Origin: Tubulanus polymorphus
Lineage: Eukaryota; Animalia; Nemertea
NCBI RefSeq assembly: GCF_964204645.1
Contig: NC_134027.1
Location: 16,888,560-16,952,559, forward strand
Reading direction: 5' to 3'
Length of the DNA: 64,000 nucleotides
Below, piece by piece: positions 15,890 to 50,328 of this stretch. The notes under the pieces were generated by a model that searched no databases, was not told the origin of the DNA, and was given only the letters and a program-made list of their open reading frames with translations. Both the position numbers and the translations under genes were made by a program. Numbering within the stretch: position 1 is the first letter of the stretch; every line of letters begins with the position of its first letter.

Positions 15890-16274
15890 GACCATAGTAA
15901 TTGGGAAAGTAGGCTTTCAGATCAGAGGGCGAGAGGGCGAGACACCACTCATCACCACAAGTAATAATTCAATTGAGTATGAGACACCACTCATCACAGC
16001 TAGGCTCTAGTGAGAACGGACGATTGCTCTGTGATACACATATACAGTGAGTGCGCGTAACAACAGCTGCGCGTGGATAGATCGATACAGTGAGTCTCTA
16101 CTGAGAACGGTTATAAACGCGTGTGCTATTACTGTAGTGCAGTGATTGCGTGTCAACTGTACCCGGATGAATAGATGCTGTGAGGCTTGGGTGAGAACGG
16201 TTAATAGCGTGTTTGTTATATACAGGGGGAAGTAATCCCCACTCAGCACCACAAATAATTTGTTTTCCTTATAA

Positions 16275-16600
16275 ATGGGAGATAGAAAAGCATTCTTAGC
16301 AACAATAAATAACAGAATAAAACCAGCAAAAAACAATTTGAAATAAAAAAGTTAGTTGATGTTAAAAAAGAAATTGAACATAAAATATTGAAATTAGAAA
16401 AGATAAAACCTAAATATGGAGAGAAAGTATCAGCTAATTTAAGCTACTGTAATGTTAGTACATCGCGAGAATTTAAAGTATTTTTACCTGATAAATGGGC
16501 TTCATTGAGTACAGAGGAATTAAAAGCTTTAGAAGGATTTAAAATAATCTATCATGGAAAAAATGAAGATGGCATTCATGATTTAGAAATTGTTGATTAA
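16275..16600 (+). pseudogene. Small beta-rich protein (possible ssDNA-binding), frameshifted
   Basis: KYGEKV..VFLPDKW..IIYHGKNEDGIHDLE matches 52594..52947; function is inference. Confidence 0.6.
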
Positions 16601-16629
16601 ATTTTTAAAAAATAAATTAATAAAAATAA

Positions 16630-16707
16630 TGAATATCTAGAATCCGAAATGACTTATCTGGACAATTTATTTGCTCCGCATAGATAGGTAAAGTAGTGAG
16701 ATATTCA
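16630..16707 (+). ncRNA. Conserved structured motif, copy in B
   Basis: tgaatatc/gatattca outer stem, acttatct/agataggt, ggacaa/ttgctcc; conserved ATCCGAAATGAC and AGTAGTGA. Confidence 0.55.
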
Positions 16708-17022
16708 ATTATTTTCATTTTTGATAGCAGTTGTTTCAGAATTATGAATATCATGAATTTTATTTGATTTCTTATACCAATTACACCCAATCAAAATGAA
16801 TACAATTACAAATCCAACTGTAAAATATAGACATTTATCAAATATTATATCATTAGAAGGATTAGAAATAACAATATTTTCACCATTTTTATTAACATTT
16901 TTATTACTTATTTTTTCTTTTACAGCTTTTTTATATTCTTGTGATTTAATTCCTAATTGCCGAGACCATTCAATTTTTTTCTGTGATCTCGGTTTTTTCT
17001 TCACTTCTTCCACCTTGTTCAT
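16705..17022 (-). CDS. Small basic single-TM protein
   Basis: RSQKKIEWSRQLG + hydrophobic helix; homolog of 40920..41279. Confidence 0.7.
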   Translation of the reverse strand: MNKVEEVKKKPRSQKKIEWSRQLGIKSQEYKKAVKEKISNKNVNKNGENIVISNPSNDIIFDKCLYFTVGFVIVFILIGCNWYKKSNKIHDIHNSETTAIKNENN

Positions 17023-17560
17023 TTATTATAGAAATATTTTTACTTTCAATATTTGAAAATGTTATAACCCCAGTTGATAATAATGTCATAAATCCACCTA
17101 ATTGAAATGATAAATATCCAATCCATTTATTTAATTCAGTCATAACTAAATAATCATTTTTTAAATCGGAATATAATCTATTTTCATCTTCAATTGGTAG
17201 TATATAATTACATAATTTACTATAACCTTTTACTACATTTTCTGATATCGCGTCATTAATTCTAGCTGTTCTCGCGGCTTCATAAATCTTAAATAATCTA
17301 ATAATTTCATCTGATTTCATTGTATCTAATTCATTATAAGTTAATTTTTTACCGATAAAATTTTTACATTTTCCAGATGCTATTAATATTTCTAATTGAT
17401 GTTTACAATAAAGATAATATTCATAATTATTATTTGTTGTAACATTATTTAAAGCACCATCATCTAGAGTTAATTTTGTTTCTGTTATTCCTAAATCATC
17501 TAAAGTTTTTTCAATTGGAACATCACCATTTTTAGATTTTATTTTCTTTTCACCTCCCAT
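16970..17560 (-). CDS. Conserved 196-aa accessory protein
   Basis: YEYYLYCKH..LYSDLKNDYLVMTEL shared with 40319..40909. Confidence 0.8.
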   Translation of the reverse strand: MGGEKKIKSKNGDVPIEKTLDDLGITETKLTLDDGALNNVTTNNNYEYYLYCKHQLEILIASGKCKNFIGKKLTYNELDTMKSDEIIRLFKIYEAARTARINDAISENVVKGYSKLCNYILPIEDENRLYSDLKNDYLVMTELNKWIGYLSFQLGGFMTLLSTGVITFSNIESKNISIINEQGGRSEEKTEITEKN

Positions 17561-17577
17561 TTATATAACAAATAAAT

Positions 17578-17864
17578 TAGTTGTGATGTTGTAACTAGAA
17601 TTCAACTAGAATGTAACTAGAATTCAACTAGATTAACAAGCTAGTTGAAATATTGTTGTTTTTGTTTATTTCTTGTTAAATCTAGTTGATTTTTGTTTCA
17701 ACTACTAACAACTAGAATTCAACTAGAATGTAACTAGAATTAAACTAGATTAACAAGCTAGTTAAAATATTGTTAAATCTAGTTGATTTTTGATACAACT
17801 ACCAATAACTAGAATTCAACTAGAATGTAACTAGAATTCAACTAGATTAACAAGCTAGTTGAAT
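17578..17864. repeat. Tandem CTAG-rich repeat tract (ACTAGAATTCAACTAGAATGTA...), about three higher-order units
   Basis: Visible repetition immediately downstream of the ATPase stop. Confidence 0.85.
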
Positions 17865-18473
17865 TTAAATAAATTCATATTTAAATGGGTGTTGTAATCT
17901 AAATGGTAATTTTGATCTTTTAATATTTTTCAACTTATCCATATATTCATTATGTAAATCATGTGGAATAATATCATTTTCCTCAAGTGCATTTTTCATC
18001 GATTTTCTATCTTTATTGTAGAATAAAACTAGAAATCTTATATTCTCCCTAAAGTCTTTAACAATTGAATTATATTTTTGATTTAAAACCCATGTTGTTA
18101 TCCCGAAATGTCTCCCAGAGAAAGCTAAATAACGTAACTCACTTTCTCTAACTTTTGAATCATGTAGATTAGCACAATCATCTATAATGAATAATGTATT
18201 TGATCCTTTATAAATATCAATTGCTATTTTAATACAATTATCTAAATTTTCTTTTACTGTTTTAGGATCTAATATAATGAATTTATTATTTCTAGTAATA
18301 TTTCTATCATAAGTTTGATTAAATTCATATGTTGGGCAAAATAATACTATATTATCAAAATAGTTTTCATAAACAGTTTCTAATAAATTTAATATAAAAT
18401 AAGTTTTTCCACAATTTGTTAAGCCAGATATTAACATATTATGAGGCTCAAATATAAATAATTCTTTATTCAT
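17865..18473 (-). CDS. A32/FtsK-like packaging ATPase
   Basis: GLTNCGKT, LFIIDD, GRH. Confidence 0.92.
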   Translation of the reverse strand: MNKELFIFEPHNMLISGLTNCGKTYFILNLLETVYENYFDNIVLFCPTYEFNQTYDRNITRNNKFIILDPKTVKENLDNCIKIAIDIYKGSNTLFIIDDCANLHDSKVRESELRYLAFSGRHFGITTWVLNQKYNSIVKDFRENIRFLVLFYNKDRKSMKNALEENDIIPHDLHNEYMDKLKNIKRSKLPFRLQHPFKYEFI

Positions 18474-19599
18474 TTATATATTTTTAATTTTACTTGATAA
18501 TATCCATTCATTGAATTTATCTGGCCATCCAACCCATTTTACTAAAGAATATTTTTTTCTTTTAATAGTTTTTGTTTTTAATACTTTTTCAATTTTATAT
18601 TCTTGTTCTAGATTTTCAGTAGTTAAACTTAATTCTTCTTCGTAAAAGTAGCCATCAACTTCTTCACCATCTAAATCTTCTTATTTATAGACATATGGTT
18701 TTGTTGTTATTACCTTTTTATTTTATATATTTCTCTAGTAAAATTTCGATCGTATCCTTTATCAAATATCTTTTTATACTTAGAAATTCTAACATTTTGA
18801 CCAACTTTAAATTTAGGTTCACCAAAATCATCTACAAGAAATGCTCCATATAAATTATTCCAAACAATTTCAGCATTTTCAGGTTTTCTAGCATCAATAG
18901 GTTTCATTCCAATAGAAGAATGATAAGAATTATTATATCCTTCTATCAATTTTGGTAAAACATCAATCCATTTAAAATTATTATTTGCTGTAAAATATTT
19001 CCACATTCTTGTTCTTAATGTTCTATCAAATCGTTCAACAACTGCTGCTTTTTTATCCGATTTTGTTGAAAAATATTTAATATTATGATTGTCTAAGAGT
19101 TCATGAACAAGTGAATTATCAAATTCTTTTCCATCATCAAATTGTATTTTTTCTGGTTTTAGTTTATCATCCGAAAGAAATTTTCTTAAAACATTTGATG
19201 TTTGTACAGCATCTTTTCTATAAAGTGGGAAGCTCCATACATAACGACTAAAAATATCAATTATATTCAATAACCAACAATAATCATCATTATCTTTCTT
19301 AACATTTTTCATATCAATTAAATCTCCTTGCCATTGTTGATCTACATAACTTACCATAGTTATACGAGTTTTATATTTTCTAACAATTTTTTATGTGTTG
19401 TGTATGTTGGTTGTTCTAACATAAATTCATTTATATCTTTATATTTAACTAAATTTTGTGGGATTATCTTATCTAATTTATCTTGTTTTACTTGACGCCA
19501 TATATTTTTGGTAGAAGAATAAGCAACCGAACTCTCAGGGTTGTAATATAAATTTCTTAAATATTGTTCTTTAGTATTAGGAGTTTTTTTACCACCCAT
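18466..19599 (-). pseudogene. rve integrase with chromodomain, frameshifted
   Basis: WQGDLIDM, IQFDDGKEF, AVVERF; chromodomain-like tail LVKWVGWPDKFNEWI. Confidence 0.9.
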
Positions 19600-19628
19600 T
19601 TATATATCGTTAATTTTAACTTTATATT

Positions 19629-20874
19629 TTAATATTGAATACTATCCAATTGTGAATTTACAATACTTAATTGTGCATCAGATATAATATAAATGTGCAT
19701 TTTGAAATGTTTGTCTCCTCTTTTCTTTGTCATGAATAATTGTATTCCATCTTTAGTGTTCTGTAGTTTTTTCCCAGAACCATGTAATGAATTATCCTCT
19801 GTTGTTCTAAAATCTAACCATAATGCATATTTATTGCCGGTATAATAATCAATTTGATTAATATTACAATTTTCAAATGATTTTACTTTTTCATTCATAA
19901 AATGTTTTCTAATTTCTGCCCATTGATCAATCATTCTCATTCCTTGACAAAATATTTTATTTGCTATTCCTTCAATAGTTATTTCTACTTTTGTTATTTC
20001 AGGATTATAATAATTATCAACCTTTATTGCGCCATTAGAATATGTTGCAATGGTAAAAATATTAATATACCTTTAATAGATCTTCTTGGGAAGTTAATAT
20101 TCTCATTAATTATTTCATTATTTGCATTAATAGTTACAGTTTTAAATTTATCAATATAATCATATAATAATGAAAATCCTTGATTGTATCGAGTTTGAAT
20201 TGTGCTAGCAATATTTTCATTAGTTACTGTGTCATATTCTAAACATATATTCGATAATTTATAACCCATATCTTTAACAACGCTAGATAATACAATTTCA
20301 TTTACAGGAGCAAATGTTATCTCAAATATAATATCTTCTTGAATTGCGTATTTATATAAAGGTGCATTATTATTTATCAATTCAAAGTCTAATGGAATTT
20401 TATATTTGCTTCCATAAATCGTTTTTATCAAATTATCTGTGGCACGAGTTACTATTGCGTCATTAGCTCCTGATCTTAATTTATTATGGTTTTCCGATTG
20501 AATACCCTGAAATATCATATTATTTCTATTTTCTTTAGTTAACCATAAATCTTTATAATGCATAAATAAATTATAATCATCTAAGAGAAAACTGTTTCTG
20601 GACCAATCGTTATAGTTAATTTTTTAATCAAATATCTCCCAACATTATCAACAACATAATTATTATCATGACCAATTACTTTTATATCAGCTGATAAATA
20701 AATACTATTTGGAACATAAAAAGTATTTTGTGTTAATCGAGGAATTCTAACGTATAAAGTTTCATCGGGATTAATATTAGAAGGGTTATGAGTAATTATA
20801 TGATGTGATCTTTCTGCTTTAATAGCATTAGATATTCTAGAAATCTTAGAAGGACTTATATAACTCCCACTCAT
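19629..20874 (-). pseudogene. Major capsid protein, two frameshifts
   Basis: Three ORF pieces nearly identical to 3870..5117. Confidence 0.82.
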
Positions 20875-20894
20875 TTATTTAACAAAAAAATTAA

Positions 20895-22318
20895 TTATCT
20901 ATTTTCTATTATTTTTTCTTGATATCTTTTTGATATCATATTCACTAACCCAAAAATAATAGCACTTACAACTGTAATTAAAAATAAAATAATATGTTCG
21001 GCAGCAAAGTTAATAATGTTTCCTGCAGATTTCAATATAAAACAAACAATTGATGCAATAATTCCTGGCAATGCTGCAGCAGATTTCTTTGATAGTTCCC
21101 ATAAATATTTTGCTAATTTCTTTAAACCATCTTTAACTTTATCTCGTATAGAATTATTATCATTCGGGGGTTTATCCGGTTTATTGGGAGTAGGAGTAGA
21201 TTTTAAAGCATTTGATATTGTTAGACCAATTGTTGTAAATAACATAGTTACAGCTGTTAGAATTGAAAGAATTGTTATTCCTAATTTAAATAATAATTTT
21301 ATTCTATCTTTTAATGATATCTTTAAAAATAACTTTTAATCTATTAATATTATAATCATATGATTTTAATAATAATTTAATTTCTTCTTTCTGTACTTCT
21401 AAATTATCTTTTAAATTACTAATTTCTTTTTCTAAACGTAATTCTTTTTGCCTATATTCTATTTTATCAATTAATTGATGATCTAAATCAGACTTTATTT
21501 GTTCTATTTCTTTATTTGCATTAGTTAATTCTTTTTCCAAATACATAATTTTTTGATCTCTTATACTTTTATTATGTGCAATTTTATCAGCTTCATTTCT
21601 TATACTAATAATTTCTCTAATTGCTTCATCAGAAAATATATTTAAATCTTCTAATTGTTGATCTGTTGCATCAATTAATCCATTCGGTAAAAGTTTTTCA
21701 ATTGAAACTTTATTTGATTTAAGTTTACTAGTTTTGGAAGTTATATTCTGTTCAGATGTTGTTTCTGTTTCTGATTTCTTTTTGATTATTTCAAATAATT
21801 CCTTAATTCTTTGTTTAAATACGTCTATATCATTATCAGTTAATTCTTGTTTTATAACATCAGTTATTACATTACTATTACTAATTCTTTTAATTCTATC
21901 TGGATCTAATTTTCTCAAAGTTAATTTTGTTATTATTTTTTTTATAAGTGATATCAATATAATAATCATCTTTCAAACGATAATAACATTTACCATTATC
22001 TAAAAATTTTAATTGATCTGCTAAAAGTCCAACGTCTTCATCATTTATGTTAAGTTTAGATTTTTCAATTAAATCTTCTAATTTAGGTATTTTGTTTAAA
22101 TTATCTAAATCTTGTTTTACTAAACCTGGGTCTAAATTTTCAGGATTTAATTGTGATTCTGCATTTTTAATATAATCAGGCATATTTAAATTATTATTAT
22201 ATCCTGGCTCATTACCGTCATTAAAACTTGTTTCACTAAAATCAGGTTGTTGTTCATCAGTTATGCCAGGTTTATCAAAAGGATCCATTCCAATATCTTC
22301 TCCACCTTCTACATCCAT
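20895..22318 (-). pseudogene. Acidic/coiled-coil/TM protein, frameshifted
   Basis: ORFs 21896..22318, 21304..21969, 20895..21245. Confidence 0.75.
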
Positions 22319-22334
22319 TTATATAATAAAAAAA

Positions 22335-23636
22335 TTAAAATTTAAAATATAATATTCCTCCTATAACAATTCCTATACAAGTTAAAGCTAATTTAGTATT
22401 TTCATGTAATTTATTATCATTATCAGTTTTAATTATATCATGTTGAATATTATCAGTTTTAATATTTTCTGTAGTATTGTAATCTTTTATTTTGGAATCA
22501 TTATCCAATTTAATATTCTTAGTTTTAGTTTCTGTTGATTGAATATGTTTTTTATTTTTTTCACCTTCCATTAATTTTGGAGCAGTAATTATCTTTGTAT
22601 TTATATCATTCAATCCAAATGAATTATTTATTGTTGCAGTTTTAATTAGATTATTATAACCAATTATATTTCCCATCTTTAATACTAAATCATTAGAAAT
22701 AATTAATAGATTAGGGCCTATACAATAATTTAGTCTTACATGAGATTTATCTAAATAATTTTGATATCTTACAATGTTTTCTGGAATCGATCTATTTTTA
22801 TCATTATGAATGGAATCTTCAAATAATACTTTGAATTGTTTCTGCGCATCGAATGAAGTGTTATCATTTCCAATTATTGGGGATCTTGTTTCAACTTGTG
22901 CGCCTAAAAAACATATCAAATAAGTTCTAATAGATTGATTTATTCTTTGTATACCTGATTTTGTAAAACCTTCACCATTTTCTAAAATGAAATTAACCCA
23001 ACCATTATTATTATCAATTTTATAATTATGATAAGCTGAAATCCTATGCATATAATCAATTCTTTTTATTTCAAACTCTTCACCAACACCTTGCAATTTA
23101 CCATGCGCTCTAAAATCGGAATTAATATTTATATTAAATTCATTACATATTTTATAAAACTTAGATAGGTTAATATTATTATCCAATTCTTTACAATATT
23201 TAGACCCGGGTAAAGGACATTCTAATTCATTTAATATTATTCTGATTTGAAAATATGTGTGAAATCTAAATATTGTGTGAATTAATTTTAAATCAGAATA
23301 CTTCAAATTTTTATCTAAGTTATTTAAATGATCATTCCAACTAATTCCGCATCCTGTTGTTGCACAATAAACAGCAAAATCTAATTGGTTCTGCCAATAT
23401 TTCATATTAGATTTTACTTTATATATATGATATTCATCTCGAGTAAAAGTAACTTCATATGTATTAAATATATTTTCCATTTTAGAAATAAAAAACTGTG
23501 ATTCAGTAACATAAATTTCTAAATTAGTTAATGAATTTAAAACTACATTTTTATATGTAATATTTTTTTCTAAATCTATTGCAGTAATATTATATTTAAT
23601 TTATTTATTATATAGGAAAGCTTTTGGAAACCCCAT
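22335..23636 (-). CDS. Conserved ~433-aa protein (early stop near 23600)
   Basis: WQNQLDFAVYCATTGCGISW; C-terminal TM. Confidence 0.78.
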
Positions 23637-23652
23637 TTATATAATTAAAAAA

Positions 23653-24083
23653 TCAATAATTAACTAATTCTTTTAATAATTTATCTTGTTCTTCAACTGT
23701 TATATGGCCATTTCAACTTATTATATAATGTAGTGTATTCTTTAATTTATTGATTTCTTTTATATTAGTTTTAATTTTTTTTTAAATTACTTTTTATATT
23801 TAATTTTGAACTTATACCGGTTAAAACACTTGAACTTAATCCTAACACGCCAATTGATATAGCTAAAGGTGTTAATGGACTGAATATTGCTAGAAATGTT
23901 ATAACAGAACTAATTGTAACCACTTATAATCAAATAATATATAATTTTACTTTTTAAATATTTTTTCTCCTTTATCTTTAAGTCAATTTCAAATTCTAAT
24001 ATTTGTTTTTCTAAATATGTTTTTAATTTAGTTTTATTTATATCATGAGGAATAATATCAATACTATCAACTTTATCTTCCAT
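23653..24083 (-). pseudogene. Two-TM membrane protein, disrupted
   Basis: DNA homology to 378..812 and 50329..50761. Confidence 0.7.
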
Positions 24084-24102
24084 TTATTTAGAAAGAAAAT
24101 TA

Positions 24103-24525
24103 CTAATTAGTAAATTTATATGCTACAAATATAACAATAACTGTTCCACCTAAAATCCAAATTATTTCATATTTCTGTTGTTCTTTACTTGGGGTATAAT
24201 AATCTGATAATTTAGGTTTGTATAGATGTAATTTTTCTTTATTGGTTACTGCGTTATATAAACTCATTGCATCATCAACTGATTGAAAATCTCTATGTGA
24301 AATCTTCTGATCATATAATTCTTTATTGATGTAATCCATATAGTTTTGTCTCTTTTCTCTATATTCTTCAGCTGCTTTATTGTATTTCTCTAATGCTAAG
24401 TTATGTCTTTTTTGTTCTGTTAATGAACCATTTTTATCAATATGCTTAAATAAATAACCACCACCAGTAAATGCTAAAGCGTTAACAATTGCCGATCCTA
24501 TAATAGTTATAATTGCAGAAGCCAT
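24103..24525 (-). CDS. 140-aa protein with N- and C-terminal hydrophobic segments
   Basis: MASAIITIIGSAIVNALAFTGGGYLF...; three copies. Confidence 0.82.
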   Translation of the reverse strand: MASAIITIIGSAIVNALAFTGGGYLFKHIDKNGSLTEQKRHNLALEKYNKAAEEYREKRQNYMDYINKELYDQKISHRDFQSVDDAMSLYNAVTNKEKLHLYKPKLSDYYTPSKEQQKYEIIWILGGTVIVIFVAYKFTN

Positions 24526-24549
24526 TTATTTAACAAAAAAATTATGCAT

Positions 24550-24771
24550 TTATATGGGAGGAATATATTTTTGTTTTTCTAAATAATCAATAGTTAAATT
24601 AGATAAAGTAACTGCTAATGTTAATTTTAAAATATCATTTATATCAAATCTATCAACATTAACACTTCCCATTTTGAATACTTTTTTTAATACCATTGAA
24701 TAACCAACAGTTCCAACTGATAGTAATGCGCCATTATATATTCCAGTTATTATCCACTTATTATCACTCAT
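24550..24771 (-). CDS. 73-aa hydrophobic protein
   Basis: Nearly identical to 51229..51450; T-run+TAAATG start. Confidence 0.78.
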   Translation of the reverse strand: MSDNKWIITGIYNGALLSVGTVGYSMVLKKVFKMGSVNVDRFDINDILKLTLAVTLSNLTIDYLEKQKYIPPI

Positions 24772-24813
24772 TTATTAATCAAAAAAATTACTATCTTCAA
24801 AATATTTAGTTAT

Positions 24814-25131
24814 CTAAGTGATGATTAATTTAACATTTATTTCATTACTACTTTTATGATTATCATATATTTCGGTTAATATGTTTTTAATATCATCTAT
24901 GATAAAATCTTCATCTAATTCATAAAATCTTAAAGATTCTCTAATTAAATTAGTAATCTTTTCTACATTTAAAGTTTCTTTATCTATTGTTGTTTCATAC
25001 TCAAATGTTGTTTCATTAGAAAATGCAATATTTTTGATATGTGTAATTACTTCATTAATGTTAAATTTCATTTCTTTCTCCCGTTTAAAATCAAATCCAA
25101 AACATATACTCGGTCCAACAGTTATATTCAT
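24814..25131 (-). CDS. Hypothetical protein
   Basis: Ortholog of 51451..51807. Confidence 0.75.
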   Translation of the reverse strand: MNITVGPSICFGFDFKREKEMKFNINEVITHIKNIAFSNETTFEYETTIDKETLNVEKITNLIRESLRFYELDEDFIIDDIKNILTEIYDNHKSSNEINVKLIIT

Positions 25132-25147
25132 TTATATAGTGAAAAAA

Positions 25148-25904
25148 TTACTCTTTACATCTTATAACTAATTCATAAATTACAGAAAAGTTATTCAAAT
25201 CAATTAAATAACCATTATGATTTCTTATTTCTAATTTAAAATTATTGAAATGTGGAATACAAGGTTTAAAATCACATTCAGTTAAATTATAATATATTTG
25301 CGTTCCAAATTGTTTAACATTTTTTAATGGTAAAATATTTAATATACTACAATTACAAATTGTATCTTTAGTTGCTTCAAATGTTTTTGGTGGGTCAATT
25401 AAATTGCAATAAATATAAAAATGTGTAAAAGGTATTAAGTTTGATCTACCTTCTGCGTATGCTGTAACAATATCTGGGTTAATTCCTAACAGTTTACCTA
25501 AAGGTTTTCTTACTGTAAATTTAAATTGTTCGTCATTAGCTAACCTAATCTTTATTTTATTAGAACTATCACTTTTTAAAATTCTAATACTAAATCCGGA
25601 ATCACTTCCTAATTTAGCTCGAGCTTTTCTATTAATTTCTTGTGCTGATGTATCTAAATTATATAATCCTGGTTTTAGATATAAAAAACCATTTATTCCT
25701 TTTTTTGTAAAAGATTGAAAAAATTAAATGTTCTAGACTTTTATCCGATATATTGTAAAATGAGTTACATAAACTTATATTTACTAATTTCAAATCAACA
25801 CAATTCTTAAATTCTCTATCTAATTGAACTATTAAATTATGTGATTTATAATTTTTAAGTTTTCTAGAATCAACAAATATTCTGTATTCTTTTAATTCTA
25901 CCAT
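25148..25904 (-). pseudogene. Minor capsid protein (penton), frameshifted
   Basis: Ortholog of 51824..52576. Confidence 0.72.
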
Positions 25905-25972
25905 TATTTATAACATAAAAAAATTACCGCTCATCACTAAAAATTAATTTTAATAAAAATTTTCCTAAATAA

Positions 25973-26971
25973 ATGGATGAGAAGATAGCATGCAAAATTT
26001 GTGGTGAACTTCTAAGAAAAAGTAATATGGCTCGACATATGAAAAAACATGAAGAAAATTATAAACCCCCTAAACTAAACTGTCCAAAATGTAATAAATT
26101 ATTCTCAAGAAATTATGTTAAAAAACATTCAGAGAAGTGTAAAATTAATGGTGCAACGGCTAATGTTGATAGTAATGAAAGTAATAGTAATTCTGTTGAA
26201 GTTGAACCTGAAATTATTTGGAAAAGACCTTTCTTATTCTATGACAAGGATAATATAAAAGATCATATCTGTGAGCCTTGTCAAGTAAAATATAGCCCTG
26301 AAAATATAGAAGATTGGGAGAATCATCAATTTCGTAAAGCACATATAGATAAAATTTCTAATAAATTTGAAACTGAATTCAATGAAAGAAAAGATAAATT
26401 ATTAGAAAAAATAAAATATGAGAAAACGTTACCAGATAATAAAGAAACAGTTGAAAAGTTAGAAAAACAATATAATGAATTAACAAGAAAAACATATTAT
26501 TGTATATATTGTAAATTGATTATTACAACAAGTAATTCAAATCTACATAATAGAACAATAAAACATAAAGAAAACGTAAGAAAATACCAAGAGCTTAATG
26601 AAGATCTATTACCAATAAATTATAAACAAAAATGCCCACAATGTAATTACGCGACCTTAAGACAAGAAGGTACTGTGTTATTTTGTAATGAATGTGGATG
26701 GCAAGAGAATTTATGGAGTGAAGAAAAAACTAGAAATTTTCTCATAGATCCAAAATTAAATTATCTAGATGAAATTTTTAAAATATTTTCTATAGAAGAT
26801 CATACACCAGAATATATGCAATGGCTTGAAAAAATTAAAATGATAGAAAATAAAAATGGTGAAATAACTAAAAAAGATATTATAAAAACAATTATTCCGT
26901 CAACATTTAACACAAAAGAAAAGAAAATGTATTTATATTTATTATTTAACGATTATTATGAAAAACCTTAA
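25973..26971 (+). CDS. Multi-zinc-finger protein
   Basis: CKIC..HMKKH, CPKC..HSEKC, CEPC..HQFRKAH, CIYC..HNRTIKH, CPQC..CNEC. Confidence 0.8.
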   Translation: MDEKIACKICGELLRKSNMARHMKKHEENYKPPKLNCPKCNKLFSRNYVKKHSEKCKINGATANVDSNESNSNSVEVEPEIIWKRPFLFYDKDNIKDHICEPCQVKYSPENIEDWENHQFRKAHIDKISNKFETEFNERKDKLLEKIKYEKTLPDNKETVEKLEKQYNELTRKTYYCIYCKLIITTSNSNLHNRTIKHKENVRKYQELNEDLLPINYKQKCPQCNYATLRQEGTVLFCNECGWQENLWSEEKTRNFLIDPKLNYLDEIFKIFSIEDHTPEYMQWLEKIKMIENKNGEITKKDIIKTIIPSTFNTKEKKMYLYLLFNDYYEKP

Positions 26972-27290
26972 ATTAACAGAAGAAGATATGAAAAATATTA
27001 AAAAAATATTCAAACAAATATTAATGTATCATTTGGAAAATAGAATAACAGATTCAATAAATTATGAATTCTTTTTAAATAAGATTGTAAATTATTTAAA
27101 CATAGATATTATAATTCCATTTGACGAATTAACAAACAAAAAGATACAAAGAGAGCGAGATAAAATGTGGAACAAGATAGAACTTTATTTAAATGAGAAA
27201 AAAGAAATGGAAGAAGAAACTAAACAATTAAATGAAAATGAAGAAGCCAATAGTGATTTCGAGTATGATGATATTGATTTTATGTTTTAA
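26958..27290 (+). CDS. Hypothetical protein with acidic tail
   Basis: 110-aa ORF overlapping upstream stop and convergent with pPolB. Confidence 0.6.
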   Translation: MKNLKLTEEDMKNIKKIFKQILMYHLENRITDSINYEFFLNKIVNYLNIDIIIPFDELTNKKIQRERDKMWNKIELYLNEKKEMEEETKQLNENEEANSDFEYDDIDFMF

Positions 27291-30200
27291 TGACCATAAG
27301 GTAATGTTTTTATACCATCATCTAAAATATGCCTTTTATCATCAAATTCAAACTAGTTTTTTCAACTTCATTAATGTACATCTCGTGATCTTCTGATCTT
27401 AAACAATTCATTTTGTGTTTCATTACAATTGAGTTATATAAACACTTTATATAATCTTGAAATTCTATATGTTTATCAACCACATGTTTTGTTATTCCTT
27501 TTAACTTTTTAGCTTCATGATCTTTTGTTCTATAACTATACATTTTACTTCTTATCCCAAGAAATTCAATCATTTCATCACCCCCTAATTCATCTTTAAA
27601 CTTACCAGGAATCTTTTTATTATCATTGCTAAATAGTTCATGATCTTTGGGATAATTGCTAAAATCAAAATGATGTTTTAATGTTTTTAAGTCTTTTGTT
27701 ATGTCATTTGTTTTGATTTTTAGTATGTACGCATCCGTATTTTTTGGATTAATGGGAACCAAGAATTGAATGTTCCATCATCTGTTGATAAATCATAAAC
27801 ATAGTCAGTTGGGTTAGATATTTCAAATAAATCTTTAACTTCTTCAGTTAAATCTTTTTCTACATGCCTTAAATTAAAACAATTTGGTTTAGATTTAATC
27901 AACCCAATATTCATATTGAAGCCTAATGAATTGCATAATATATTCAATCCTGATATAGCAGCTTTTCCTTTTTGAGCTAAAGATATTGTTTTGCGGTTTT
28001 TGAAACTTTTAGTACCATCTGCTGCGTAGAATCCAACGAAGAACCATTTTCTTAAATTATTATTTGCATTTAATACATAATCTGGAACTATCTTTTCTTT
28101 AGTTGAAGTATTACTTTTCACTATTGCATGAATATAGAATTCATCATTATATTCTATAGCAAAATCTTTAGGATTATTTACAAGTATTCTATAAACTGCT
28201 GATGATTTCATAACATCCATGATTCTAAATGTTTTATGTGAATAAACTTCTTCACAGAATTTCTTAATTCTTTCTAATAATTTCAAGTCTTGATTGCATA
28301 AATACCAACAATATTTATTACCCCAAACATAATTATACACACCTGCTGAACCATCTCCCATGAAAAATCCTTTGATAAAATATTCTTTTTCTTCTAATGT
28401 TTCGGGTTCTATATTATAAATATTATCAATAATTTCATCAAATGACATATGATTCATTCTTTGGAAAAATCTTTTATGTAATAATTCATCTCCAATTTTT
28501 ATATCAGTTGGTTTTATTTCATCGCCATTTCGTTTAATTAAACTATGATCTTCTGTAACATCTACAAACCCTAATTTAGTTCTAACTCTATAGATTTTCT
28601 TTGTTTTATGCCTAATAATATTCTTTAATTTTTTCCATCCATTTCTTGTCCAAACATCCATTAAACCATTTATTTGTATTAATTCTTTTTCACCATATGA
28701 AATATAACATTCATTTTGTTTTGGAATTATTTCTGAAATTCTTCTTATCAATATTTTTATCATTAAATTTTAATAATATTGGGGTGTCAGCTGTTACAGA
28801 ATCAAAATATAATATTTCAATATGCTTTCCCCCAAAAAGTGGTTGTAAAACATTATAATAAAAATCATACATTAATAATTTTGATACTTCTAAAACAGTT
28901 GAACCAATGAATATAGGTTCATTAAATTTCATTGACGTTCTTTTTAATTCAACTGCTGTTAAATAATCTTCAAATCTTTTATTTCCTAAATGTCTAGGAC
29001 TTGATTGTAAATGTCTTAATCTTTCAGAATTATTTACTAATTCAATATCATTTCTATTTCTAATATTTTCACATGTTTTACCATAAAAACTATTATTCAT
29101 TAATTTGAAGAAATCTTTTTCAAAATCTGTTTTTGATATGGTTCTCTGTTGAGTATTAAAATCTATATATTTTTCTAACCACTTCGATTGATTAAATTCA
29201 ATGTATCTATGTACTTTCTTTAATTTCATTCCTTGTTTTAGATAAAATTTTAACATTCTATAATGAACAATATAATTGTATTTATTATTTTGAGTAAGTA
29301 TTAATTTTTCTGTAAAAACATGATCTTTCGGTTTTATTTTCTTCTGGTATTCACTTAAATAACTATCATCTACGGTTAAATGTTCTGGGCAATAAGGTAA
29401 GTTTCTTGTTTTAAACTTTATATTTTCAGGATATTCTAAATCAACTACAAAAAAATAACCAATTGGTGCTTCATCTTCTAAACTCATAATTGCGCTTTCC
29501 CAATTAGTTTTATCATCATTTTCAACTTCTGTTAATATAAAATTTTTATATGGTTGAGGTTGCATCATTGCCCAACCATATAAATTATTGGCGTCAATAT
29601 ATAATAATTTATATTCATCATTTGCTCTAAAATACCTATCTCCCATAACACCACTAATTCCACCTCTAATTGATTTTTCAAATAATAAAACCATATCTGG
29701 TTCTTTTAATAAATCTAATTCTACATTTGTATATTTTAAACCACATTGCCAGGTTAAACCAGGACTAGAGTAGCAATAACAAGGATCAACATTAAAATGA
29801 TTCAAATTAACTTCTCTAAATTTTTCAAATATGTCGGCCAATATCATTACATCTGATTTTAAATATAAATCAACTAATTCACCATGATTTTTCATCTTAA
29901 AATGGTTCCAAATATTTAATGTTCTATTAAACACTTCGTCTTTCACATACTCCTCTTTTAATTGATCATAAAATTGATCTTTTAATAATTCTGTTACATT
30001 AAAATCATTGTGTGTTTTATAAAATGAATAAGGAATTGCGCCTTTATATCTCAATAATTTAAAATCTTGGTCATTTGGATAATAATATCGAGTTATTATA
30101 AAATCATTATCAACTAAACTTTTTGATAAATTATCTAATGAACTTGCTAGAAATCTATAAGAATCTAAAAATCTAATGCAACCAAATTGAAATGAAATAT

Positions 30201-32343
30201 AATTTTCAGATGTTTTAGCTAATAGTTTAAAATCATATTTTCTTACATTTACACCATTCATAGCATTATATTCTTCTATTTCTTGATTAATTGCGCCCAA
30301 TTTTCCCGATAATTGTTTTATAATTAGATGGGTATCATAGCCTGATAAATTATGAAATAATATTGGTACGAAATTTACTTTTTTAGCTTGTAAATTGCAA
30401 TCTTCATGAGCAGCTCCACGATATTTTGAATTTAAATGATCATGATCTCTAACTTTTTTATCAAATGAATAAAAACGTTTTTCACAATAACAACAATGAG
30501 TTGCATAATTAAAATCAATTTCATCTTCTTTTGTCATAACTATTCTTTTATTTTTGTTTAATAAATTTGCAAAATCACTTTCTAATTCAATCATTTTATC
30601 ACAAAAATCATTAACTAGATTTTCACCTCTAAAAGAAATATATTGACTTTCATATAATTCAGGATAATTTGATTTTATATAAATTCCACAAGCAGCAGCT
30701 CTTTGATGAACTTTTTTAATTGTGTTTATAATTGGCGGGTCTTGTATTGTGTCTTCATTTAATTCATTTCCTTTATCCATTGATTTTAATAATTGCTTTT
30801 TGTTATATATTTCTTTTCTATCTTGATCAGTTAATTCTTTATTCAACGATTCAAAATCCCCATAAATTACAAATGGAACAATATTCTTAAATTTATGATT
30901 AGTAAATTTCAATTTATAATCTTGTTCTGTTGGCATTATTAATTTACAAAAATCTTTATTATCACATAATTCTTTATGTTTTAATAATGTATTCTCAGTC
31001 ATAAATTTAGATAAACATTTTCTACATAGATAAATTTTATTATGGTGATCACTTTCTGTTCTAAAGAATAAATCAATTTGTTTTAACCACATATAATGTT
31101 CATTTTCATCTTTTTTGTAATATAACAAATCTATAGCATTTTCATCATCATAATATTCTGTTAAATATAAAGCTTCCAATGTATAATCTTTAATATTTTC
31201 ACCTTTTGTCTTTTGTAATTGCATTAATTCAAATACATTTATTTTTAAATTATTAACTTTTTCTATTTTAGGAATCATTTTTATAGTTACTGGATATTGA
31301 TCAATTTTATATAATGTTTCATATTTCCAGTAATTTGTTATTCTACAAACATTTTCCTGTGTTGGATGTAAGCAACTAATAATTGACCATAGAAAACATT
31401 TATTATCTTCATTTTGAATATTTATTACTGCTTTTGTTGTAAATGGTAATTTAATATAAGATGATGCTTTAATATCCTTTTCTGTTGTAAAGTTTGAATC
31501 ATTTTTAAACATTTTATTACTTTTTGATGTTTTATTCCTTTTTGTATTGTAAACATTTAAATCTAAATATATAATTTCATTCAATGTTAAGCCAGAACCC
31601 TCAAAATATCTTTCTTCAATATGACGTTTAAATTCATTAAATATTTTTTCTAACTTCTCTTTTATTTGCGTTTTTGAAATCATTTCTTCATAGAGTGTTT
31701 GAATATTATAATCCATTTTTTCTTCTGACTTTATAAAACATACTTTCCCAGAGATACTAATTTTTGGATATTCAACATCTGTTATCAAATCTAGTATTTT
31801 TTCTATTATTTCAATAAATTTACTATAATCTTCTATTGTTGTACCTTCAAAAAATCTAAATATAATAGCTGCAGGACCAATTTTACTATGTAATGTTTCT
31901 AAAATTTCAATTGTATCTTTTATTTCTAGTGAATCAATGTAATTTCTAACATTTTCCATGTAAGGTTTATTTGAAATGCATTTAGTTTTTGAATTTGGTT
32001 TTTTTACTTTTTGAGGTTTATCGTTAAAATAATCTTTTCCTAAAACATTATTACTCAAATTTTGATGGTGTTTTTGTGATTCGAGATGTCTATTATAATT
32101 CCTTTTTACTATAAATTCATTACAAACTTCACATTTTATTTCATCCACATTCATATTTTCTAATCTTTCTTTTCTTTCATTGGAATTTTCTGGAGTTTCA
32201 AAATCTATTACATTTTTTATATGATTTGCAGTTTTTTCATGTCGTGTTTTATGAGATGTATCGATGTATTTTTTACAATATTGGCAATAATATTGATTTT
32301 TATTAACATTATTGTTTCCTGGCTGGTGTTCATTCTCCCCCAT
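27287..32343 (-). CDS. polB: Protein-primed family B DNA polymerase with N-terminal zinc fingers, containing an intein (frameshifts in and after the intein)
   Basis: FVIYGDFES, FHNLSGYD, YIDANNLYGWAM, KLMNNSFYGKT, YFD|TD; DHDH..CNL zinc motif. Confidence 0.95.
27739..28800 (-). mobile_element. Intein with LAGLIDADG homing endonuclease in pPolB motif C
   Basis: Block A SVTADTPILL, block B VTEDHSL, GFFMGDG and GFYAADG, block F YVYDLSTDDGTF, terminal KN followed by Thr. Confidence 0.92.
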
Positions 32344-32428
32344 TTATTAGGAAAAAAAAATACTTGTGGTGATGAGTGGTGTCTCGCCCTCTCGCCCTCT
32401 GATCTGAAAGCCTACTTTCCCAATTACT

Positions 32429-37369: not shown

Positions 37370-38093
37370 AGTAATAGGGGTAATGGGCTTTCATACCAAA
37401 GGTCGAACGGTCGAGCTCATTAAAAAACAAAACATTAAAAGTAATTTAAACCAATAATATATTTTCATAATCGTGTGTATTTTATATTATAACTAAATAT
37501 TTATTCTAAGATATCAATAATTTAAAAAGCATATTGTATTAAATCAATTGGTCGCTCCACTTCGCTACCGCTCCGCTCCGCGACCAATTGATTTATTTAC
37601 AATACACAAATTCATATAATCAAATATATTCAAATAATAATAATAATTCTATTATTCAACTGAAATACACACGGTTATGAAAATATATTATAGTTTTAAA
37701 TTACTTTTAATATTTGTTTTTAATGAACTCGACCATTCAACCTTTGATATGAAAGCCCATTACCCCTATTACTCTTAAAATATTCATATAAATGAATAAC
37801 ATTTAAATTGACAGATTATTCAATATAAAAGTATATATTTACAACATTATTTCAATATTTATATTTGTGTGAGTTAGATGTTTAAACATTAAAAGTGTTA
37901 GTAAAGTGTGATTGAAATAATACATGATATAAATCATTGAACTTCTAAAATCAATTTAAAAAAAAAATTTAGTATTAAAATGGAAGCAAATAAGTACTAC
38001 TGTCCAACATGTAATATCAATGTAGATAAATCCCAAAAAGCAAGACACAATAAAACTAAAACACATTTAGAGAATGAATTGAAACTAGAATAT
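37370..38093. repeat. Left TIR of C with fold-back 37370-37773
   Basis: Reverse complement of 56887-57611; internal arms ~110 bp. Confidence 0.93.
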
Positions 38094-38183
38094 TTACAGT
38101 TATATTCAGAACAGTTAACAAAGGCAAAGAAATTTATTGAATTATGGAATAATGATCCAAATAATGAACAATACGTTGAGTAA
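37980..38183 (+). CDS. Small zinc-finger ORF (pPolB N-terminus + HNH C-terminus chimera)
   Basis: First 38 aa as in 56773..57000; tail LQLYSEQLTKAKKFI..NNEQYVE as in 39348..40016. Confidence 0.6.
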   Translation: MEANKYYCPTCNINVDKSQKARHNKTKTHLENELKLEYLQLYSEQLTKAKKFIELWNNDPNNEQYVE

Positions 38184-38317
38184 TTTGATATCAAGGATCC
38201 GATGTTTATACTAGAACATGATTCTATTTGAACCTATATACATTCTATGTAAAGAGCTATGTAATAAATCTATAAATTCACAGCTGTTACAGCCGTTACT
38301 ATGACGCCGAGACATTA

Positions 38318-38582
38318 TGACTCATAATATTACAAACGTGTATAGAAAATTCTAGAAAGGTGTGCTGGAACTCTGAATAGAGATGACACGTCATAATCAG
38401 AAACGTGTAGAATATTCTAGAAAAGGCGCGCCGGAACCAGATGACGTGGCATAATCAACGACGTGTCATTATAGAAATCGCCCCGAAAATGAACAGACGC
38501 TGTATTATTGTGCTCAGGATATTCTATATATCGAAACGAAATTAGGAGTTTATAGTTTACAATTATAAATCTAAATGTAAGT
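38318..38582 (+). promoter_or_regulatory. Pol II-type promoter: AP-1, two heat-shock elements, CRE/UPRE-like sites, TATA, splice donor
   Basis: TGACTCA 38318; GAAAATTCTAGAA 38345; GAATATTCTAGAA 38410; TGACGTGG 38442; TATATA ~38525; GTAAGT 38577. Confidence 0.6.
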
Positions 38583-39347
38583 ACTGTTTTTTGTAGTTAT
38601 TGGGGCTATTAAATATGAAACCTTTAGATATATTTAAGTGTATTTAGTATATCTTTTAGATGGCTAGAGTTGCCGCTAATATCTTTTAGATTAATGAAAC
38701 GCCATACGCATCAAGAAGTGATAGAGAAACTCAAGATACTCTTTCTGTACTCTTTCTGACTGAGGAATCAACAGCAATGGATATCAAACCAATAGAATCA
38801 CCAAAAGATCGAAGAAGAAATATAAGAATTTCAAAAACATTAAGACTCCAATGATTAAGTTTAACATTTGTTGATGTAGTTAAATATTTACCAGCAATTG
38901 AAAAAATGCTGGTAATTATAAATTGTATCTATAGAAATCAAATGATGTATTGGAAGAAATGACTGAACAACTTGTATAATGTATTGTGTAAATCTGTTTG
39001 GTGAATTTTTATGTTCAGTCGTTTCAATAATGATTCGTTTCAATTATGATTAGCGCATGCGCATTAAGCAAAAGCGCGCATGAATGCGCGGTTTACCTAA
39101 TGCGAACACGTTTAGATATTTCATGTCGGTTGTTTCTATTTACATAATGAATATATAATTATGATTAGCGCATTAAGCAAAAGCGCGCACGAATGCGCGG
39201 TTTTGCCCAGTTGTATGATTTAGATATAAAGGAATCGAAACTGACTTATCAAAAGCAGCGAGGAATGAAAAAGGATGACGTTGGTCGAAGAAATGGAAGA
39301 GGATTCTAAAATATTAACCAATTTAGTAAAAAAAATACGTATAATAA

Positions 39348-40016
39348 ATGGAACCAGAACAACCACAAACTATCAATATTACAAATAACACTGGTGGTGT
39401 TATAAATATATATTACAAGAAGTGTTCTAAGTGTGAATTAGATAAATTAGCTTTAACAGAATTTAGTAAGCGTAAGATTAGCAAAGATGGTTTTCAATAT
39501 TGCTGTAAAACTTGCACTAAACTATACACCAAACAATACCGAGAAGCTTATAATGATTATATGACAGAATATATGAGAGAAAGATATCAAATAGATCTTA
39601 ATTATAGATTGAAACAATGCTCAAGATCTAGATTAACACAATTATTCAACAAAGAAACACATTCAGAAACACTATCTAATCTATTGGGTTGTTCAGATGA
39701 ATTTCTCAAATCATGGATTATATTTCAATTCGATGATAAAATGAACATAGATAATTATGGGGATTATTACCATATTGATCATACGTTACCGATTTCTAAA
39801 TTTAACATGAATGATGAATACAATAAAAAACTTATTTGGAATTGGAAGAATTTAAGACCTTTAGAAAAGAAGGAAAACATAATTAAATCTAATAAACTAG
39901 ATTTACAGTTATATTTAGAACAGTTAACAAAGGCAAAGAAATTTATTGATCAATGGAACAATGATCCAAATAATGAACAATACGTTGAGGAATTTGATAT
40001 CAAGGATCCGAAATGA
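39348..40016 (+). CDS. HNH endonuclease with N-terminal zinc ribbon
   Basis: KKCSKC..CCKTC; HIDHTLPISKF..NLRPLEKKENIIKSNK. Confidence 0.88.
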   Translation: MEPEQPQTINITNNTGGVINIYYKKCSKCELDKLALTEFSKRKISKDGFQYCCKTCTKLYTKQYREAYNDYMTEYMRERYQIDLNYRLKQCSRSRLTQLFNKETHSETLSNLLGCSDEFLKSWIIFQFDDKMNIDNYGDYYHIDHTLPISKFNMNDEYNKKLIWNWKNLRPLEKKENIIKSNKLDLQLYLEQLTKAKKFIDQWNNDPNNEQYVEEFDIKDPK

Positions 40017-40078
40017 CTTATCTGGACAGTTATAATTACTGCTCCTAATAGATAAACAAAAGTAGTGAGATATCAAAT
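39992..40078 (+). ncRNA. Conserved structured motif, copy in C (overlaps HNH stop)
   Basis: atttgatatc/gatatcaaat, ttatct/agataa, ggacagt/actgctcc. Confidence 0.55.
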
Positions 40079-40318
40079 AGATTTTAAATAAAAAGTATTT
40101 AAAAAACAATAACTTCAACTAGCTTGTGAATTCTATTATATTTTTAATATTTTCTTTTCAAAAAAGAATACTTTATATCACAAATAAAAAATACTAAAAA
40201 AACAATAACTAATACTAAAATTCTTTACCTTTAACTAAGCTAGTATTAATCTGAAGAGATACTGGTATCATTTGAAGAATACATATAATATTTTTTTTGC
40301 TTTTTTTCTCTAATATAA

Positions 40319-40909
40319 ATGTCAAAGAAATCTAATAAGAATAGTATTGATATTGAAAAAACATTAGATGATTTAGGTATTAGTGATAATAAAGATACAG
40401 TTGTTTCTAATTCTATTCAAGTTAATAACAATATAGATTATGAATACTATTTATATTGTAAGCATCATCTAGAACTATTGATTGCCGGTGGAAAAACTAA
40501 TGAGTTTTTAAATAGAATCATTACTTTTCAAGAACTAGACTCTATGAAACCAGATAAAGTAATAAAATATTTTAAGATTTATGAAGAAGCAAGATTAGCT
40601 AGAATAAATGATTCTATTTCAGATGGTATTGTCAAATGTTATTCTAAGTTATGTAACCAGTTAATACCAATTGATGATGAAAATAAATTATATAGTGATT
40701 TGAAAAATGACTACTTAGTTATGACTGAATTACAAAAATGGATTGGATATGCTTCATTTCAATTAGGATCGGTTATGACATTAATTTCTACTGGCGTCAT
40801 AACATTTTCGAACATCAAGCCTATGGAATATAAATCAGGTAAGAATGAAACGGATGACGCTGTACTACAACCAAACGTCGAAACAGAAAAGGAATCGGAA
40901 CAAAAATGA
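40319..40909 (+). CDS. Conserved 196-aa accessory protein
   Basis: Homolog of 16970..17560. Confidence 0.8.
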   Translation: MSKKSNKNSIDIEKTLDDLGISDNKDTVVSNSIQVNNNIDYEYYLYCKHHLELLIAGGKTNEFLNRIITFQELDSMKPDKVIKYFKIYEEARLARINDSISDGIVKCYSKLCNQLIPIDDENKLYSDLKNDYLVMTELQKWIGYASFQLGSVMTLISTGVITFSNIKPMEYKSGKNETDDAVLQPNVETEKESEQK

Positions 40910-40919
40910 ACTAAAATAA

Positions 40920-41279
40920 ATGAGTGATGGAGTTAAGAAAAAGGCTAGATCCGAGAAACAAATTAAATGGGCAAGAGAATTAGGTAAAATATCTTCAGAA
41001 TTAAAAAAAGCTAAGAAAAAGAAATTAACTGACATAAATGAATTATCTGATATTGATTCAAATAATAATCCATCTGATTCTTCTAATGCTAAAAGTAATT
41101 ATAAATTATATATTACAATTGGATTAGTAACAGTTATTATATTCTCTGGTGTAATATATAAATATAAGTATAAATCTGATTATAACAATAATGATTCCAA
41201 TGACAATAAACCTATCATACCAAATAAGTCAAATGATAAAGTCATTGAAAATAAACCAAGATTAATATTAATGGATTAA
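40920..41279 (+). CDS. Small basic single-TM protein
   Basis: LYITIGLVTVIIFSGVIY helix; homologs in A and B. Confidence 0.75.
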   Translation: MSDGVKKKARSEKQIKWARELGKISSELKKAKKKKLTDINELSDIDSNNNPSDSSNAKSNYKLYITIGLVTVIIFSGVIYKYKYKSDYNNNDSNDNKPIIPNKSNDKVIENKPRLILMD

Positions 41280-41285
41280 AATAGA

Positions 41286-42975: not shown

Positions 42976-42982
42976 CTATTTG

Positions 42983-49359: not shown

Positions 49360-49375
49360 TTACATAATAAAAAAA

Positions 49376-50312: not shown

Positions 50313-50328
50313 TTATATAACTAAAAAA

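Follow-up and report, generated by a model that had tools for sequence, protein, structure and literature searches.

How a DNA polymerase can work when its catalytic motif is split by a long insertion, and how that insertion came to lie near an uninterrupted counterpart, are the questions raised by a locus of the nemertean Tubulanus polymorphus. The window, meaning the whole stretch of 64,000 nt analyzed here (NC_134027.1, positions 16,888,560 to 16,952,559, assembly GCF_964204645.1), carries two genes for family B DNA polymerase (PolB) within virus-like Polinton elements: copy B, which is filled by an insert, and copy C, which is without one. The insert in copy B is 1062 nt long and runs from 28800 to 27739 on the minus strand, where the translated frames contain YFD/SVTADTPILL, VTEDHSL, GFFMGDG, GFYAADG, YVYDLSTDDGTF, and KN/TDAY (slashes mark the junctions). 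An initial annotation, made from the sequence alone, had quoted these motifs and limits for a homing-endonuclease intein, together with an uninterrupted YFDTDSY in copy C and two frameshifts near the insert ends, one of them in an A-run; all of them were recovered exactly in the minus-strand translation. The insertion site is PolB motif C, YFD/TD followed by S or A, and the insert splits the catalytic aspartates of D-T-D. The insert is a full-length LAGLIDADG intein, placed between the two catalytic aspartates of a protein-primed PolB (pPolB) encoded by a Polinton. It is predicted to splice out, and we consider it likely that it spreads by homing into empty copies of co-resident elements. The features of the two polymerase genes are as follows.

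28801..32343, minus strand: N-extein, the protein-primed PolB of element B, ending in YFD (PF03175, E 1.9e-19)
27739..28800, minus strand: intein (Hint-N, LAGLIDADG endonuclease, Hint-C), with the reading frame of copy B broken twice near the insert ends
28608..28613, minus strand: Arg-His of motif NX, a Ser1-intein signature (Arg in 69 and His in 67 of 69 copies; motif definition from PMC10189870)
28545..28559, minus strand: block B / N3 motif VTEDH (TxxH), from translated frames and residue counts across copies (Thr in 68 and His in 68 of 69)
28350..28370, minus strand: first LAGLIDADG motif, GFFMGDG (catalytic Asp kept in 68 of 69 copies)
28014..28034, minus strand: second LAGLIDADG motif, GFYAADG (catalytic Asp kept in 69 of 69 copies)
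27792..27803, minus strand: block F / C2 motif, YVYD (Asp kept in 69 of 69 copies)
27322..27738, minus strand: C-extein of the element B PolB, starting with TDAY (79% identical to the corresponding part of copy C)
52977..56638, minus strand: PolB of element C, two open frames without an intein (PF03175, E 3.1e-14)
53499..53516, minus strand: empty insertion site in C, YFD/TDS, with the junction between 53508 and 53507

The profile check that the initial annotation had proposed gave a divided answer. In copy B, LAGLIDADG_3 is matched with 30.4 bits against a cut-off of 22.5, while Intein_splicing is matched at E 1.3e-7 and 32 bits, below its cut-off of 35.8. PF14528 (LAGLIDADG domain) and TIGR01445 (31.1 against 24.5) exceed their cut-offs, and the PF14890 matches (E 4e-6 to 1e-7) all remain below theirs. 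An open copy was modeled with AlphaFold2 (pLDDT 92, pTM 0.92), and in a structure search with this model the best solved matches were the endonuclease-bearing inteins TliVMA (E 5e-17), 2cw7, PI-PfuI, and PI-SceI, followed by I-DmoI (TM 0.7 of the target). In the model, GFFMGDG and GFYAADG terminate helices 136–150 and 248–262, with a beta sheet after each, in a monomeric LAGLIDADG layout. The profiles and the fold thus bear out the call of a homing-endonuclease intein. Ser1, a terminal Asn, and a hydroxyl or Cys residue at +1 are described as intein features in PMC549080, and the Arg/Lys-His pair of motif NX is defined in PMC10189870 (articles cited by PMC number were available to us in part, and statements on them refer to those parts). 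Among the 69 genome copies with both junctions, Ser1 is present in 69, the last Asn in 66, and the +1 Thr in 69. Judged from these residues and the predicted fold, the copy-B-type insert is a full-length class 1 intein of the Ser1 subgroup with a two-motif LAGLIDADG domain, and protein splicing is predicted. Because the insert splits D-T-D of motif C, a working polymerase would need splicing: only removal of the insert from the precursor would reunite the two catalytic aspartates. It is very likely that this reaction proceeds through a Ser1/Thr+1 oxyester.

Copy B itself is a dead member of this intein lineage and cannot donate protein. Its frame changes near 28755–28770 and again in the A-run near 27740–27745, whereas many other genome copies have both junctions open and a 355-aa in-frame insert. 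Since these copies read straight through, the two breaks are peculiar to copy B, not family-wide, and represent decay or error; a break at the same A-run is also seen in 4 of 100 listed copies. The read check at the breaks, another proposal of the initial annotation, was made with raw reads of another sample (X6), which cover all 30 bins of the window stretch about 65- to 270-fold from about 12% of the run; another run, X5, contains just a few short pieces and was set aside. These reads are unlike the window in 109 of 193 cases at the first break and in 24 of 75 at the second, and two of them join both flanks directly, without the insert. The GC content of the intein (25.8%) lies within the range of its flanks (24–26%) and gives no sign of recent foreign origin.

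A search of the genome with the junction patterns yielded 206 filled and 282 empty exact matches, and reversed controls yielded 0. A protein search gave 604 candidates, of which 116 were scored, all at least 89% identical; 11 of these 116 lie in open frames of 1686–1690 aa. The flanks sort into two families, I and E, which are mostly 96–99% alike within and 77–82% alike between families. Family I comprises 227 filled and 4 verified empty sites. In family E, to which copy C belongs, 456 sites were counted when at most one mismatch was allowed, and 13 are filled; counts from exact patterns are lower bounds for both families. The filled E count derives from 14 rows, one of which was reassigned to family I. 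Of 122 distinct loci that were parsed, both flanks identified 48 as filled I, 39 as empty E, 4 as empty I, and 1 as filled E; the remaining 30 were typed on one flank or none. Two further loci were not counted: L196, a candidate fifth empty I site, for which the parser had taken an E-type site in that stretch, and L091, where the junction is filled and a short flank looks E-like, but the upstream part did not parse. An open intein was found in 26 of 69 copies, a sample biased toward good copies. The initial annotation had called copy C the empty allele of copy B, 25 kb away. An empty site indeed lies 24.7 kb off, but the polymerases of copies C and B are only 75–79% identical; copy C is therefore not a direct empty allele of copy B and belongs to a sister family, which does carry the intein in 13 copies.

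To separate filtering during replication from later decay, variants common to at least three of 47 family-I copies were compared with singletons by crude counts. The ratio of nonsynonymous to synonymous variation (pN/pS) in the nuclease is 0.18 for shared variants versus 1.31 for singletons, and the two Hint halves give 0.24 and 0.13 versus 0.76 and 1.13. In the polymerase flanks of filled copies, the corresponding values are 0.03–0.08 and 0.2–1.0. By this measure of variation, shared variants in the nuclease are under purifying selection. These values also bear on the idea that the Hint domain cleaves without ligating, which would leave a two-piece or dead polymerase and make filled elements use the polymerase of empty ones. 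The canonical penultimate His, which is usual but not universal in class 1 inteins, is indeed absent, a point that speaks against ordinary splicing; the residue there varies freely (Lys in 46, Phe in 13, and Val in 10 of 69 copies), and abundant empty family-E elements could supply the polymerase. Nevertheless, the insert separates the two catalytic aspartates, the polymerase flanks of the filled copies are strongly purified, and many related viral inteins end in KN or SN, Lys being a frequent residue ahead of their terminal Asn. We therefore regard a non-ligating Hint domain as very improbable and retain splicing. The two residues preceding the final Asn form multi-base haplotypes (including QK, AV, CF, AK, AF, and IK), and in two copies Asp takes the last position.

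If the freed intein is an active nuclease, it would likely cut the empty polymerase genes of co-resident Polintons, and repair would copy the intein into the cut site, taking short flanks along. The initial annotation had deemed homing between copies possible, and the sequence footprints are as such movement would predict. The eight whole E inteins are 88–91% identical to the I inteins, versus 78–82% for their flanks, and they form one clade with a Shimodaira–Hasegawa-like approximate likelihood ratio (SH-aLRT) support of 100. Between I and E, the synonymous difference (pS) amounts to 0.18 over the 5′-most 750 nt of the intein and rises to 0.35–0.45 in its last 315 nt, versus 0.56 and 0.63 in the flanks. 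The intein is a mosaic, exchanged after the I/E split at least in its 5′ part. The E trees omit 5 of the 13 filled junctions, four without an intein start at the expected distance and one with a changed junction codon. On the upstream E polymerase tree, six filled copies need six changes among 38 empty ones, at least four of them forced by well-supported branches; on the downstream tree, eight filled copies need seven changes, at least two of them forced. The scatter of filled copies on both trees is no better than that of shuffled labels, and the bootstraps are rough.

Additional footprints are found beside the insertion site. In the filled I copies, shared variants peak next to it, with 11, 13, 7, and 6 per 60 nt versus 0–5 in most bins further up, and shared synonymous variants number 31 in the last 60 codons versus 47 in the 340 further up; the empty E copies show no variant peak beside the site. 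Two protein clusters from other sources were also compared. In a 136-member cluster, for which 7 filled and 6 empty forms occur among the 15 members listed, filled and empty forms differ by 4–5 residues in the 25 before the site and by 9–15 in the 50 after it, and hardly elsewhere. Nearly all of these differences are confined to the roughly 7 residues preceding the site and the 50 following it, in a tract that looks co-conversion-like. In a 121-member cluster, filled and empty forms with identical flanks occur among the 15 members listed. The empty I copies differ from filled flanks by 7–11% within 360 nt of the site and by 1–2% in most bins further up. Since the filled I copies themselves differ by 4–8% within the same distance, this divergence does not decide whether empty I copies arose by precise intein loss. 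Conversion from short E-like patches beside the site in four I copies was set aside, as they contain too few informative bases.

The relatives of the intein show how far this history may reach back. The database search returned 2115 representatives with E 0.001 or better. The best matches are pPolB inteins at 41–63% identity (P0002–P0006, P0009, P0011), followed by inteins of RNA-primed PolB at 42% or less; a Chloropicon protein is also among the matches (P0097, 32%). Of 190 parsed homologues with the same junction form, 13 lie in pPolB, 163 in RNA-primed PolB, and 14 are unclassed. A tree of 65 rows, chosen from about 200 after near-duplicates were dropped, was repeated with a mixture model on 24 rows. 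It places the eight Polinton rows, the other members being classed as Polinton-type from their polymerases alone, in one clade (100/100) within a fan of giant-virus-type inteins, with the sister group of the clade unplaced; the tree is unrooted and was built without archaeal pol-c inteins. The closest viral matches, in giant-virus metagenome bins, are 40–42% identical; scans of viral and metagenome contigs yielded no relative above about 42% across the full length, and the structural matches include phycodnavirus, pandoravirus, and marseillevirus polymerases. The initial annotation had proposed that the intein was acquired from or shared with a large DNA virus. Kinship with giant-virus PolB inteins is supported, while the nearest relatives are other Polinton inteins, which makes the link an old one. 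Given the numbers and the structural matches, a giant-virus source would be the simplest reading; the unrooted tree itself gives no direction. One member, P0005, has a polymerase that is barely alignable to the others (21–38% over short stretches) and an intein that is 42–50% identical at the same site, and thus apparently shows one jump of the intein into a distant pPolB. The block B motif was found in none of the 119 other pPolB matches, from a search that favors empty forms. Related inteins with the same shortened block F occur in a PolB group unlike those of giant viruses (P0012, P0014, P0017, P0171), and others occur in topoisomerase II-type proteins (P0007, P0093, P0099, P0120).

Several observations weigh against a presently homing intein. 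An open intein was found in only 4 of the 21 copies of the least biased, positional sample. Across six related Polinton lineages, intein identities track those of the polymerases (e.g., 63/62, 66/67, and 77/80), and this indicates long co-inheritance and an intein that is old in Polintons. An approximately unbiased (AU) test did not reject the placement of P0005 outside the other seven Polinton rows (p 0.106). With the I-vs-E pS of 0.35–0.45 noted above and 72–88% identity over about the last 300 nt, the 3′ part of the intein is almost as diverged as the flanks, and this fits an intein older than the I/E split with later recombination. The four empty I copies cluster on the upstream tree (one change). 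About 97% of the family-E sites are empty, even though the sequence most frequent at empty sites is identical to the flanks most often seen in filled I copies; homing into E is therefore inefficient, recent, or opposed. Finally, the capsid module is 88–97% alike between elements B, A, and C. The families thus swap other genes, and general recombination can therefore scatter filled and empty states without a nuclease.

Some of these points would fit the alternative that the intein splices but no longer homes: it would predate the I/E split, would have been lost from most E elements, and ordinary recombination between co-replicating elements would shuffle its states. This would account for a 3′ part about as diverged as the flanks, for the parallel identities, and for modular swapping alongside a mostly empty family E. 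However, loss of the nuclease would then be expected, yet both catalytic Asp residues are kept in nearly all copies and the domain has evolved under purifying selection. Moreover, the peak of shared synonymous variants next to the site in filled I copies, and the confinement of differences to the site in the cluster of another host, speak against this alternative. We accordingly judge a non-homing intein to be unlikely, and nuclease activity and homing to be probable. Because selection has acted on shared variants, most intein events probably took place in replicating elements. In addition, since cuts at more than 400 chromosomal targets would burden the host, the elements may be silenced most of the time. 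It seems somewhat more likely than not that homing takes place mostly during joint replication of family-I and family-E elements in a nucleus, and less between chromosomal copies that are silent.

Another possibility, compatible with homing, is that the nuclease is mainly a weapon of family I against family E, cutting and excluding a competitor, with homing as an occasional by-product. The near-complete filling of I and emptiness of E would be in line with this, and the same idea has been proposed for giant viruses (PMC5871332). Shared amino-acid changes are enriched on strands predicted to face the DNA (23 of 78 versus 36 of 272 codons, p 0.0017), and two main types of hairpin follow the second LAGLIDADG motif among the copies. 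Several codon variants occur at the target, and the empty forms of another cluster have three motif variants, including D-C-D. On the other hand, E sites outnumber I sites in the genome (456 versus about 230), with no sign of exclusion; the strand regions were picked after the variation was known, and linkage among haplotypes raises the counts. Hairpin types were not clearly paired with flank types. The strand enrichment is thus a lead for an arms race and not proof, and a nuclease serving chiefly as a weapon appears rather unlikely. D-C-D in place of D-T-D also occurs in the empty polymerases P0128, P0130, and 13 of the 119 pPolB matches, including members of the cluster with filled forms, and is possibly a resistant target. 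Returning to homing, we offer more tentatively, as a possibility that may well prove wrong, that an active homing intein drives through hundreds of Polinton copies in the germ line of an animal, near-fixed in one family and invading a second, with DNA-reading strands and target codons diversifying against each other.

The elements that carry the two polymerases were delineated in the window as follows.

15896..32428, minus strand: Polinton element B (family I), 16.5 kb, with identical 6-bp flanks GACCAT on both sides
15896..15963, plus strand: left terminal inverted repeat of B, 68 bp, starting with AGT
32361..32428, minus strand: right terminal inverted repeat of B
17865..18473, minus strand: packaging ATPase of B, A32 type (PF04665, E 5.4e-13)
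18710..19390, minus strand: retroviral-type integrase of B, longest open piece (PF00665, E 1.9e-11)
19629..20623, minus strand: putative major capsid gene of B, in pieces (region 94% identical to 3870–5117)
37370..57611, minus strand: Polinton element C (family E), with 744-bp terminal repeats at 97% identity and flanks AGCAGG / AGCTGG

Polintons, or Mavericks, are recognized by a pPolB, a retroviral-type integrase, a packaging ATPase, terminal inverted repeats, a 6-bp target duplication, a double jelly-roll capsid protein, and an adenovirus-type cysteine protease. Element B is a Polinton, with a pPolB, integrase, A32 ATPase, 68-bp terminal repeats, and 6-bp target duplication. The product of 3870–5117 resembles double jelly-roll capsid clusters, with feature scores of 0.97–0.98 to clusters in which 10–24% of members carry PF21738 or PF16903, a recognition value below the threshold of the tool; PF16903 itself is matched only at E 0.0035. 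PolB, ATPase, and protease are named among Polinton features in PMC3671162. An adenovirus-type cysteine protease was not recognized among the frames of B of at least 100 aa; a frame at 36132–36464, outside elements B and C, is protease-like of this type by eye and has no Pfam match. The central genes of B (capsid and unknown; 19587–25917) are 88–97% identical to those of elements A (1–5162) and C (46863–52588), unlike the polymerase, integrase, and ATPase, which are 75–80% identical to those of A and C. By this comparison, families I and E swap modules.

The host of the elements is an animal nuclear genome, as indicated by Wnt genes in the assembly (39 exon matches above cut-off), several on the contig of the window; a search of the assembly for COX1 gave no match. 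An assembly artefact, contaminating giant-virus DNA, or a single dead relic might be suspected from the two frame breaks of the window copy and its AT-rich, repeat-dense surroundings. Such an origin is barely conceivable given at least 116 scored copies on large contigs, the terminal repeats, target duplication, and insertion into a retrotransposon, the Wnt genes on the same contig, and deep coverage by reads of the other sample. Across the 268-Mb assembly, Polinton copies form one broad block per large contig and probably amount to several percent of the sequence. Element B sits inside a long terminal repeat (LTR) retrotransposon, with a gag-like frame (by eye) at 32454–33529 and an aspartyl-protease frame at 13792–15369 on either side. 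Within the capsid gene of C, an element with a reverse transcriptase and a GIY-YIG-like domain (Penelope-like by eye) occupies 44548–46867, flanked by 396-bp inverted repeats at 99.5% identity. Free-standing frames with an HNH-like motif and without a Pfam match lie near the ends of elements A and C (10160–10597 and 39348–40016), none being seen in B, and possibly represent a second nuclease on mostly intein-free elements. Endonuclease_7 (PF02945) is matched within the polymerase of C (55022–56638) and within many related pPolBs. Elsewhere in the window, there are BEL/Pao-like fragments by eye (58997–60123), an 834-bp inverted repeat at 95% identity (61024–64000), and a long triplet repeat (15517–15846).

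With such spread, the intein nested in a virus-like Polinton would be a parasite within a parasite. According to surveys, eukaryotic inteins occur in fungi, algae, protists, and giant viruses, for the most part with unicellular hosts (PMC5784728, PMC10710043). Here, more than 200 intein copies occur in animal chromosomes, inside a protein-primed polymerase that is not among the intein hosts in the available parts of those surveys. The initial annotation had stated that inteins are not known from animal host genes; that statement is not contradicted, as this intein resides in an integrated viral element and not in a host gene. With filled and empty targets by the hundreds in one assembly, the homing cycle of invasion, near-fixation, resistance, and decay can be followed as a population within a single genome. 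Through the intein, Polintons and giant viruses are physically and genetically linked, and it implies contact and recombination, within one nucleus, between Polinton genomes belonging to different families. If active drive is correct, Polintons would be the path along which giant-virus-type inteins enter animal chromosomes and are maintained there, in several hosts. The insertion site also provides a simple marker for screening other animal genomes.

Our literature searches turned up no account of a true intein, either in a Polinton or in the chromosomes of an animal, although an earlier mention could exist in the supplements of PMC10710043 and PMC5784728, in subscription journals, or in repeat databases. 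Eukaryotic inteins are reported from fungi, algae, and four giant-virus families (PMC5784728), and PMC12220804, PMC3671162, and PMC13768754 treat inteins in general terms only, in the parts available. The accessible text on coral polintoviruses (PMC11131425) makes no mention of inteins. Nuclease inserts (HNH or other) in Polinton pPolBs have been suggested to "result from intein invasions" (PMC11071308); a term search of the available text of its cited source, PMC10748475, found neither "intein" nor "LAGLIDADG". Those inserts place a nuclease domain inside pPolB, as here, without a described splicing domain, unlike the whole Hint domain at the catalytic motif in the present case. PMC10710043 describes endogenous giant-virus polymerase inteins in algae and a labyrinthulid, a Pol delta intein of Chloropicon, and homing between paralogs in Anaeramoeba. 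These cases resemble ours in being nuclear, in their viral link, and in movement between homologous sites of one genome. They concern protists or algae with few copies per site, whereas the present host is an animal with more than 200 filled and more than 400 empty copies. The Chilo iridescent virus intein, as cited in PMC549080, belongs to an animal virus and differs in its gene, its Gln-ended type, and its large free virus as opposed to an integrated multicopy element. The cysteine-less Ser1 inteins PolB16 and Aes123 (PMC10189870) share Ser1, a hydroxyl residue at +1, and the Arg-His of motif NX, but are split mini-inteins, whereas ours is contiguous with a nuclease. A close parallel is the Mimivirus PolB intein (pol-c, position III; PMC549080), which occupies the same site, YGD/TDS there and YFD/TD here, in agreement with the motif C site named in the initial annotation. 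Mimivirus-type pol-c inteins likewise have Ser1, Asn, Thr+1, TxxH, and LAGLIDADG motifs, at 351 aa versus 355 aa here. The pol-c inteins of Nucleocytoviricota and archaea sit in RNA-primed PolB, whereas the present one sits in protein-primed PolB (PF03175). Unlike the virus hosts of pol-c inteins, its host element is integrated in animal chromosomes in hundreds of copies, and the Polinton inteins form their own clade. The intein is thus of a known class, the pol-c homing inteins, and its host is new: Polintons amplified in an animal genome.

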